Of a stretch of DNA of 64,000 nt, positions 60,626-62,924 are shown piece by piece. This stretch comes from Eledone cirrhosa (taxonomy: Eukaryota), in contig OZ024743.1 of assembly GCA_964016885.1 (NCBI GenBank), positions 62,000,001 through 62,064,000 of the forward strand. Direction: 5' to 3'. The translations under genes were made by a program, and so were the position numbers. Below the pieces are notes generated by a model. The model ran no database searches and was not told where the DNA came from. It saw only the letters and a list, made by a program, of their open reading frames with translations. The first letter of the stretch is position 1, and every line of letters begins with the position of its first letter.

Positions 60626-60817
60626 AATATGGTTTTATAAATATAGTTTTCCATTTATTTAATATTGTATATATATATATATATATATATATGTGAATAT
60701 AGACATAGAATATTCGAAAATATTCTGTATGTTTATAATAAACATTTTGAAGACCTAATCGCTATAGAATAGAATACGTCACGTATTACAATTAGATTCT
60801 CGATAAAAGCAAGGGAA

Positions 60818-60860
60818 GTAATCTACGCGTTTCATTCTTGTTAGAAATCTTCAGGACTAC
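60818..60860 (-). ncRNA. Minimal type I hammerhead (identical copies 61128-61170, 61438-61480, 61748-61790)
   Basis: GTAGTC-CTGAAGA-tTTCT aaca AGAAt-GAAAC gc GTA-GATTAC on minus. Confidence 0.88.
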
Positions 60861-62119
60861 ATATCCAGTGCTTTTATCGAGAATGACACAGCTAGAGACT
60901 TATAGAATACTTAGCTGTGTACAGGAACTGGTTTGAAAGAGCGGTTGCCGGTCCGGCAGAAATTAGAAATTGGAATAAATGCTCTGAAATAGCGATATAT
61001 ATGTGAATATAGACATAGAATATTCGAAAATATTCTGTATGTTTATAATAAACATTTTGAAGACCTAATCGCTATAGAATAGAATACGTCACGTATTACA
61101 ATTAGATTCTCGATAAAAGCAAGGGAAGTAATCTACGCGTTTCATTCTTGTTAGAAATCTTCAGGACTACATATCCAGTGCTTTTATCGAGAATGACACA
61201 GCTAGAGACTTATAGAATACTTAGCTGTGTACAGGAACTGGTTTGAAAGAGCGGTTGCCGGTCCGGCAGAAATTAGAAATTGGAATAAATGCTCTGAAAT
61301 AGCGATATATATGTGAATATAGACATAGAATATTCGAAAATATTCTGTATGTTTATAATAAACATTTTGAAGACCTAATCGCTATAGAATAGAATACGTC
61401 ACGTATTACAATTAGATTCTCGATAAAAGCAAGGGAAGTAATCTACGCGTTTCATTCTTGTTAGAAATCTTCAGGACTACATATCCAGTGCTTTTATCGA
61501 GAATGACACAGCTAGAGACTTATAGAATACTTAGCTGTGTACAGGAACTGGTTTGAAAGAGCGGTTGCCGGTCCGGCAGAAATTAGAAATTGGAATAAAT
61601 GCTCTGAAATAGCGATATATATGTGAATATAGACATAGAATATTCGAAAATATTCTGTATGTTTATAATAAACATTTTGAAGACCTAATCGCTATAGAAT
61701 AGAATACGTCACGTATTACAATTAGATTCTCGATAAAAGCAAGGGAAGTAATCTACGCGTTTCATTCTTGTTAGAAATCTTCAGGACTACATATCCAGTG
61801 CTTTTATCGAGAATGACACAGCTAGAGACTTATAGAATACTTAGCTGTGTACAGGAACTGGTTTGAAAGAGCGGTTGCCGGTCCGGCAGAAATTAGAAAT
61901 TGGAATAAATGCTCTGAAATAGCGATATATATGTGAATATAGACATAGAATATTCGAAAATATTCTGTATGTTTATAATAAACATTTTGAAGACCTAATC
62001 GCTATAGAATAGAATACGTCACGTATTACAATTAGATTCTCGATAAAACCAGTTCCTGTACACAGCTAAGTATTCTATAAGTCTCTAGCTGTGTCATTCT
62101 CGATAAAAGCACTGGATAT

Positions 62120-62162
62120 GTAGTCCTGAAGATTTCTAACAAGAATGAAACGCGTAGATTAC
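62120..62162 (+). ncRNA. Minimal type I hammerhead (second copy 62430-62472)
   Basis: GTAGTC-CTGAAGA-tTTCT aaca AGAAt-GAAAC gc GTA-GATTAC. Confidence 0.88.
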
Positions 62163-62924
62163 TTCCCTTGCTTTTATCGAGAATCTAATTGTAATACGTG
62201 ACGTATTCTATTCTATAGCGATTAGGTCTTCAAAATGTTTATTATAAACATACAGAATATTTTCGAATATTCTATGTCTATATTCACATATATATCGCTA
62301 TTTCAGAGCATTTATTCCAATTTCTAATTTCTGCCGGACCGGCAACCGCTCTTTCAAACCAGTTCCTGTACACAGCTAAGTATTCTATAAGTCTCTAGCT
62401 GTGTCATTCTCGATAAAAGCACTGGATATGTAGTCCTGAAGATTTCTAACAAGAATGAAACGCGTAGATTACTTCCCTTGCTTTTATCGAGAATCTAATT
62501 GTAATACGTGACGTATTCTATTCTATAGCGATTAAGTCTTCAAAATGTTTATTATAAACATACAGAATATTTTCGAATATTCTATGTCTATATTCACATA
62601 TATATCGCTATTTCAGAGCATTTATTCCAATATATATATATATATATATATATATATATATATATATATATATATATATATATATATATATATATATAGA
62701 GAGAGAGAGAGAGAGAGAGAGAGAGAGAGAGAGAGAGAGAGAGAGAGAGAGAGAGAGAGAAGATATACGCACAAATATTTAGTTCAAGAATAAGCCATAC
62801 AAACACAGATATATGAGTGTGTGATCATGTTTGTGTCCATGTCGTGGTTTTAACTCGTAACATACTACTTTTACAATAAAGAGATCAATAAAATGTACTG
62901 GCATCGATGTGATTGACTAAAGTC

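Follow-up and report, generated by a model that had tools for sequence, protein, structure and literature searches.

Head-to-head hammerhead retrozyme arrays of Eledone cirrhosa carry the insertion anatomy of Penelope-like elements (PLEs)

The array described here occupies positions 60685–62631 of a 64-kb, microsatellite-rich stretch of Eledone cirrhosa contig OZ024743.1 (assembly of 3.0 Gb), which we call the window, and is built from two oppositely oriented blocks of the same unit. An exact 310-bp period runs across 60685–62048 (1,364 bp, 4.40 identical units), followed by an inverted block at 62046–62631 (586 bp, 1.89 units) with a single mismatch, G to A at 62535. The two blocks overlap by 3 nt, AAA, at the head-to-head junction (62046–62048). 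Six CUGAAGA...GAAA cores are present, four on the minus strand (60830, 61140, 61450 and 61760) and two on the plus strand (62126 and 62436). An earlier sequence-only reading had counted about 4.4 forward and 1.9 inverted units with six hammerheads, identical apart from one change near 62535, and measurement agrees on each point; the block that it termed “forward” is antisense to the ribozyme. The ribozyme is read from the minus strand in the left arm and from the plus strand in the right, so that the arms meet 5'-to-5', with both 3' ends pointing outward into (TA)n.

Unit positions are given as phases, phase 1 being the first nucleotide after the predicted GUA cleavage site. The left arm (60685–62048, minus strand) has its 5' end at phase 16 and its 3' end, of what we call the short class, at phase 139, where it adjoins the left (TA)n target (60668–60684). 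The right arm (62046–62631, plus strand) begins at phase 200 and has a tail-class 3' end at phase 165, adjoining the right (TA)n target, which is succeeded by (GA)n (62632–62698). A PLE-type “tail”, phases 140–165 (62606–62631, plus strand), is thus found at the right end of the insertion only. The type I hammerheads lie at 60818–60860, 61128–61170, 61438–61480 and 61748–61790 on the minus strand and at 62120–62162 and 62430–62472 on the plus strand. Judging from the conserved core, cleavage after GUA is predicted between 60824 and 60823 in the first of these, between 62156 and 62157 in the fifth, and between 62466 and 62467 in the sixth. The one full cleavage-to-cleavage monomer of the right arm, which is the predicted circle (62157–62466, plus strand; 310 nt, 34% GC), has a longest open frame of 59 aa. 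Every unit contains a conserved domain, phases 59–165 (for example 62525–62631, plus strand), which holds two hairpins with compensatory changes and both end sites. The unit is non-coding, has no LTRs and a GC content below 50%, and the array ends directly adjoin (TA)n. The array has no open frame for a reverse transcriptase (RT) with GIY-YIG, so it is not an autonomous PLE.

An older Hydra-like PLE remnant (58521–60675, plus strand) has the (TA)n target at its 3' end; the remnant is host context outside the element and retains an inverted end, an endonuclease fragment (58705–58977), a 3' UTR and a hammerhead core of its own (60568–60609). This core, 75 bp from the array, is a seventh ribozyme motif that the sequence-only reading did not list. 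Outside the array, the window contains 24 more CUGANGA...GAAA cores, several of them in recurring PLE-end families, one of which (39560, 55039 and 56114) shares the U-U stem II of the retrozyme. A broken PLE RT whose family is very abundant (55,783 candidates) lies at 26060–27720 and 27944–28342 and is followed by a hammerhead core, and a separate inverted pair of hammerhead-bearing ends is found at 28162/28301. To the right of the array, 62928–63263 holds three diverged direct repeats of ∼115–130 bp with no match in the other fetched loci, and a long inverted repeat surrounding a 70-bp tandem duplication (55225–55670) looks MITE-like by eye.

In the ribozyme, helix I is GUAGUC/GAUUAC (6 bp with one G-U pair), helix II is UUCU/AGAA (4 bp, closed by U-U rather than G-C), and helix III is the short palindrome ACGCGU. 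Stems I and III are as previously described, but the label “minimal” given to the hammerhead is a misnomer. According to PMC4209133, the min-HHRs of PLE pLTRs have no helix III or loop 3, a helix II of 7–8 bp and a short helix I, and the layout seen here, with its 6-bp helix I, 4-bp helix II and short palindromic helix III, is that of the canonical metazoan type I hammerhead, which needs a dimer. A scan of the whole window with Rfam gave 0 matches at the gathering score, so that the type I assignment rests on the conserved core and the stems. The exact 32-mer ribozyme variant of the window locus has 933 genomic matches and its reversed control none, which excludes chance.

The isolated ribozyme folds no better than shuffled sequences (z 0.12 and −0.50); the whole 310-nt unit folds better than they do (z −4.05, 58% paired; antisense z −4.87). 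A transcript with two ribozymes is predicted to form a double hammerhead, with inter-copy stem III probabilities of 0.89–0.99, swapped stems I at 0.96–1.0 and stem II at 0.55–0.77. This modelled fold is in keeping with the earlier suggestion that the stem III palindrome favours the dimeric form. The U-U closure of stem II, together with a competing inactive UUUC-GAAA pairing that is 0.5 kcal/mol better (−3.6 versus −3.1 kcal/mol), predicts a weak ribozyme. In a recent preprint, cleavage was obtained in only one of nine retrozyme dimers (bioRxiv 10.64898/2026.07.22.740005).

Sequence changes that preserve pairing include G-C to A-U at 14/264 and G-U to A-U in stem I. In the two hairpins of the conserved part, double changes affect 3 of 14 pairs and 98% of cells are paired, versus 27–52% for slid controls (13 sequences; the support is modest because the 13 rows are related). 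C3-G8 and U3-A8 cores alternate among sister families, and the catalytic core is kept with covariation across four families. These compensatory changes modestly suggest that the RNA structure of the unit is under selection.

The window array is a young member of a large animal non-LTR retrozyme family with more than 1,000 dispersed insertions. A search with the unit returned 193 matches, drawn from 39 of 169 candidates scored. A 17-mer shared by the ribozymes has 13,763 exact copies genome-wide, and motifs that also catch older relatives have 21,367 and 19,822 exact matches (reversed controls 0 in all cases). Over 39 loci, which were chosen for identity to the query, only 57 differences occur in 77 kb (∼0.1% divergence), which supports the proposal of a very recent retro-insertion. 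Older sister retrozyme families, with units of ∼320 and ∼318 nt, are 75–80% identical to this one; they retain phases 59–235 and the same end sites, and phases 59–165 are their best-kept part. Their ribozymes differ, some having a U3-A8 core. Older sister retrozymes with the same end sites were seen at loci L095, L100, L104–L115 and L123–L142, and at 58030–58260 of the window.

The insertions have a common anatomy. In the first set of 39 loci (38 plus the window), chosen for identity to the query, 32 are inverted head-to-head, and the outer 3' ends fall at two fixed sites (Rayleigh p 6e-26), phases 127–139 (short) or 161–172 (tail), which are 26–35 nt apart and are used one per side of the array. 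One short and one tail end are found in 30 of the 32 inverted loci, and two ends of the same kind in none; in the two exceptions, one end proved to be a tail end on longer sequence and the other stops at phase 74. The seven non-inverted loci end at the short site (five), the tail site (one) or an assembly gap (one). Because this set had been picked for identity, the end test was repeated on position-ordered lists. Across the genome, strict patterns locate 1,186 ends of the short and 1,246 of the tail class. On one contig (C1), the first 100 short ends and 95 tail ends include 63 head-to-head neighbours within 16 kb, every one of them a short/tail pair; another four adjacencies are between ends of different insertions that face outward, and 69 ends are unpaired under the strict patterns. 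Inversion is therefore the rule for this family and not an accident.

The inner 5' ends behave differently from these fixed outer ends: they are spread uniformly over the phases (p 0.21), although they stay clear of the cleavage site (of 64 ends, none lies within 10 nt of it, 4.1 expected, p 0.014). Microhomology of 1–3 nt is present at the junction in 23 of the 32 inverted loci. The targets are (TA)n, and clear duplications of 15–16 nt are visible at two loci with unique targets (L040 and L087) among 63 inverted arrays examined, most of the other duplications being hidden in (TA)n. Some loci show further irregularities. Two or three copies of the tail, separated by (TA)n, are present at L053:4110–4172 and L055:2860–2900, as if priming at the tail site had restarted, and the entire second arm of L053 is tail only. 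Additional template jumps or orientation flips occur in or near the arms at L059:3654–3693, L086:3821–3927 and L117:3343–3520.

Two readings of the array would do without a PLE. According to the first, which is close to the original proposal, another RT such as that of a LINE made rolling-circle cDNA, and the inversion arose by an occasional template switch or fold-back. The extra jumps or flips at the junction of a few loci (L059, L086 and L117) and the frequent LINE-like frames in the fetched loci would agree with this, but a switch that is merely occasional does not fit inversion in 32 of 39 loci with obligatory short/tail pairing (63 of 63), and there are no poly(A) ends. Fold-back was considered separately and set aside: the tail arm is the longer one at 17 of 30 inverted loci and the shorter one at the other 13, and the junction phases of the two arms show no correlation (they lie within 15 nt of each other at 4 of 32 loci, with 3.2 expected). 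Such arm lengths and unrelated junction phases fit two separately primed cDNAs better. We consider this first reading highly improbable and largely refuted by the fixed paired ends. The second reading, to which we give almost no credence, is local satellite amplification or an assembly artefact from collapsed or palindromic reads. The units are indeed exactly identical, the copy number at the window locus is known from the assembly alone, and local duplications do happen (L092). Against it, the family has more than 1,000 dispersed loci of differing lengths and haplotypes, whose arms join at random points and whose outer ends are fixed, and target duplications are seen; moreover, contigs of run X1, which is perhaps the source sample, carry the unit at very high depth and with both states of site 284.

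Several traits of a PLE passenger are present in the arrays: two classes of 3' end, a one-sided tail, an inverted 5'-truncated copy joined at its 5' end, and an AT-rich or microsatellite target. In PMC11167929 (Frangieh 2024), purified PLE protein cuts an AT-rich target on both strands and extends both, using two adjacent internal RNA start sites whose spacing equals the 30–40 nt genomic tail. PMC8557442 (Craig 2021) lists an inverted 5'-truncated copy, a 30–40 bp tail at one end and a (TA)n bias as PLE traits. The retrozyme arrays share with these PLE insertions the two internal starts, the one-sided tail, the inverted truncated copy and the AT-rich or (TA)n targets, and differ in that they have no RT-endonuclease frame and carry several whole 310-nt units per arm. 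A comparable arrangement exists in the same genome, where an intact Hydra-like PLE (821-aa frame, many identical copies) has two end sites in (TA)n, and 4 of the 12 copies read carry an inverted head that ends in a tail. Paired fixed ends, one-sided tail, inversion and (TA)n targets together constitute a PLE signature from which we infer the enzyme, and insertion was very probably by PLE twin priming. This PLE machinery, our principal result, had not been named in the sequence-only reading.

The nature of the RNA template can be approached through sequence variants. Both arms agree at site 284 in all 56 informative loci (39 and 17 per state; 64 inverted loci), and over 11 diagnostic sites they agree in 58 of 61 loci, the remaining three being single-unit differences; each insertion event thus comes from one source. 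There are 24 locus-wide haplotypes among 80 loci. In the position-ordered sets, variants are fixed in all covering units at 9 of 13 and 6 of 8 loci, and several are confined to one locus. Single-locus variants are fixed through both arms in L086 (20 of 20 units), L077 (5 of 5) and L071 (4 of 4). A new mutation could reach all 20 units of both arms in one step on a monomer circle, but would need several steps on a linear template. Such locus-wide fixation suggests a monomer template and makes rolling-circle copying likely. Repeated mosaic variants, found in 8 of 80 loci, cannot come from a monomer circle, so multimer templates or local duplication must also occur. In three of these loci the mosaic variants are common to both arms and in register (L071, L098 and L101), and in five they are repeated at irregular spacing (L043, L044, L046, L073 and L092). 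Among the fixed variants, A-to-G changes outnumber T-to-C changes 6 to 2 (counted by eye), which is too few for a claim of RNA editing.

A circular template had already been proposed, and here the conclusion fared better than its argument. Locus-wide fixed variants and the absence of inner 5' ends near the cleavage site (0 of 64) make a circle likely. The argument given at the time, that non-integer, permuted array ends fit a circle, finds no support, as the outer ends are two fixed sites and the inner ends uniform truncation points, a pattern that linear PLE RNAs produce too. A competing account likewise invokes PLE twin priming, on an uncleaved linear multimer transcript of the parent array, with a weak or dispensable hammerhead and arrays that regrow by local tandem duplication. 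The in-register mosaics and irregular repeats listed above would follow naturally, as would a ribozyme predicted to be weak. In PMC11167929, moreover, PLE protein inserts in vitro with no need for ribozyme cleavage and takes unprocessed RNA as its main substrate, and tandem PLE passengers with no ribozyme exist (MRC1; PMC8557442). This account has more difficulty with single-locus variants fixed over as many as 20 units, which at ∼0.1% divergence would call either for passage through a monomer or for a short insertion that then regrew rapidly. Truncation would also shorten the arrays in every round, yet they reach 48 units, and the catalytic core is kept with covariation in four families. We regard the linear multimer as a possible but doubtful template, and an RNA circle as the likely main one.

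The reading that we favour overall, with some reserve, is a young non-LTR retrozyme written into (TA)n by a PLE RT-endonuclease, one cDNA per cut strand, probably on a 310-nt circle. The array would be transcribed, adjacent hammerheads would pair through the ACGCGU palindrome and cut after GUA, and a host ligase would circularise monomers and some multimers. A PLE protein would then bind the two-hairpin domain, for which the conserved phases 59–165 are a candidate recruitment or initiation signal, and the two strands of the AT-rich target would be cut ∼15 nt apart, as the anatomy of the insertions indicates. Reverse transcription would begin at the two fixed internal sites that define the outer ends (∼phases 127–139 and 161–172), one per strand, and each cDNA may pass many units across the cleavage junction before halting at a random point. 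The two cDNAs, derived from one RNA or from sibling RNAs of a single source, would finally join 5'-to-5' by 1–3 nt of microhomology, giving the observed head-to-head array with its one-sided tail. More tentatively, a PLE RT dimer might copy one 310-nt circle twice at once from both sites, one per strand, displacing strands for up to tens of turns; it would be recruited by a portable two-hairpin signal that four successive retrozyme families have retained. As none of the sampled PLE termini matches this signal, it may mimic a PLE end in structure instead of deriving from a pLTR.

Hydra-, Neptune- and Poseidon-like PLEs are abundant in the genome (55,783 and 10,596 candidates), and several seem intact; the clade labels were read from motifs, not from a tree, and Pfam profiles gave no match to the Hydra-like proteins. 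Apparently intact young PLEs lie at L143–L154 and L185–L187, with 821-aa Hydra-like frames in identical copies and with Neptune-like frames of 938 and 1,096 aa, and one Neptune-like family carries a U3-A8-type hammerhead core. None of the PLE families sampled in ∼170 fetched stretches and 50 endonuclease-centred loci (150 of 10,596 endonuclease candidates scored) has the conserved domain. The tails of the sampled PLE families are ∼45–80 nt long, versus 26–35 nt in the retrozyme arrays. As partners we rejected the RT family of the window, which is older (∼95% amino-acid identity among top matches), and the young Hydra-like and Neptune-like families, whose termini are unrelated. Lone motifs led no further, since 13 lone tail-motif loci and 20 diverged-family loci proved to be sister retrozymes or fragments and not PLE ends. 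Three short motifs had no match in one supplement file of PMC8557442. Given the small PLE sample, the partner should be regarded as still to be found rather than as absent. At L113:8300–8430, an old Hydra-like element has two 13-nt halves of the tail motif antisense in its 3' region, in order and 80 nt apart, possibly representing an ancient relative.

Twenty public runs labelled as 17 organisms contain 0.73–0.96 of the unit’s words. In two of them (X13 and X6), compared with L099:3566–4290, one contig of the unit is accompanied by the host’s high-copy SINE-like repeat at 60–130 times greater depth, and run X1 likewise has the SINE-like repeat at ∼35 times the depth of the unit. Raw reads of a run labelled as the same organism as X13 (X21) gave 0 of 12.8 million on the unit and the SINE-like repeat, which is formally no test. 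We do not claim horizontal transfer: the runs examined (four were compared) also contain the host SINE-like repeat, so that carry-over of DNA from the host or a close relative is the simpler reading. This suggests cross-sample carry-over, easily detected thanks to the tandem arrays.

Elements of this kind are already known. Cervera and de la Pena (2020; PMC7229834) described non-LTR retrozymes in axolotl, coral and mussel, and the common features there are tandem non-coding units of 150–450 nt with one type I hammerhead each, low GC content, strong self-pairing, dispersal and target duplications of >4 bp. The E. cirrhosa family has all of these sequence-level features, namely tandem units of such a size, hammerheads, no coding capacity, low GC content, dispersal, duplications and self-pairing. 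Of the axolotl ribozymes, HHR_Amex1 has a short palindromic stem III and HHR_Amex2 a U-U at the base of stem II, both as here. Circles and cleavage were demonstrated in those systems, whereas the present family is known from sequence. The mobilising enzyme was only suggested there (LINEs or PLEs), and in the text at hand neither a tail, nor paired ends at fixed sites, nor inverted head-to-head arrays are described.

Li, Clavereau and Pollet (2026; bioRxiv 10.64898/2026.07.22.740005) reached the same conclusion that PLEs move retrozymes, which they regard as non-autonomous PLE derivatives; the evidence is co-occurrence and pLTR phylogeny, mostly in vertebrates. Their preferred explanation is that a PLE terminus amplifies locally, whereas the E. 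cirrhosa arrays arrive ready-made with PLE ends, and no sampled PLE has a matching pLTR. MRC1 and other non-autonomous Chlamys elements (PMC8557442) are similar as PLE passengers in multicopy head-to-tail insertions. Their 3' ends resemble those of the autonomous partner and most Chlamys have no hammerheads; in contrast, the E. cirrhosa retrozyme has a hammerhead in every unit and no 3'-end partner among sampled PLEs. In the openly accessible literature searched, mostly as listings, no paper was found to describe retrozyme arrays with paired ends of the PLE type, or a cephalopod family of this sort.

The retrozyme kind is thus known, and its insertion anatomy is direct genomic evidence for a PLE link that was previously argued from co-occurrence and phylogeny. 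It bears on the identity of the enzyme that mobilises animal retrozymes, and on whether their circles truly act as intermediates of transposition. More than 1,000 nearly unmutated insertions record the reaction, with fixed paired starts, one source per event and random 5' joins. The strict pairing of one short and one tail end in vivo tightens the PLE mechanism, and a 310-nt substrate with mapped start sites can now be named for in vitro work. If the reading is correct, satellite-like arrays in AT-rich DNA could originate from an RT that rolls on a small circular RNA, and such an RT may be of interest for RNA-templated insertion tools.
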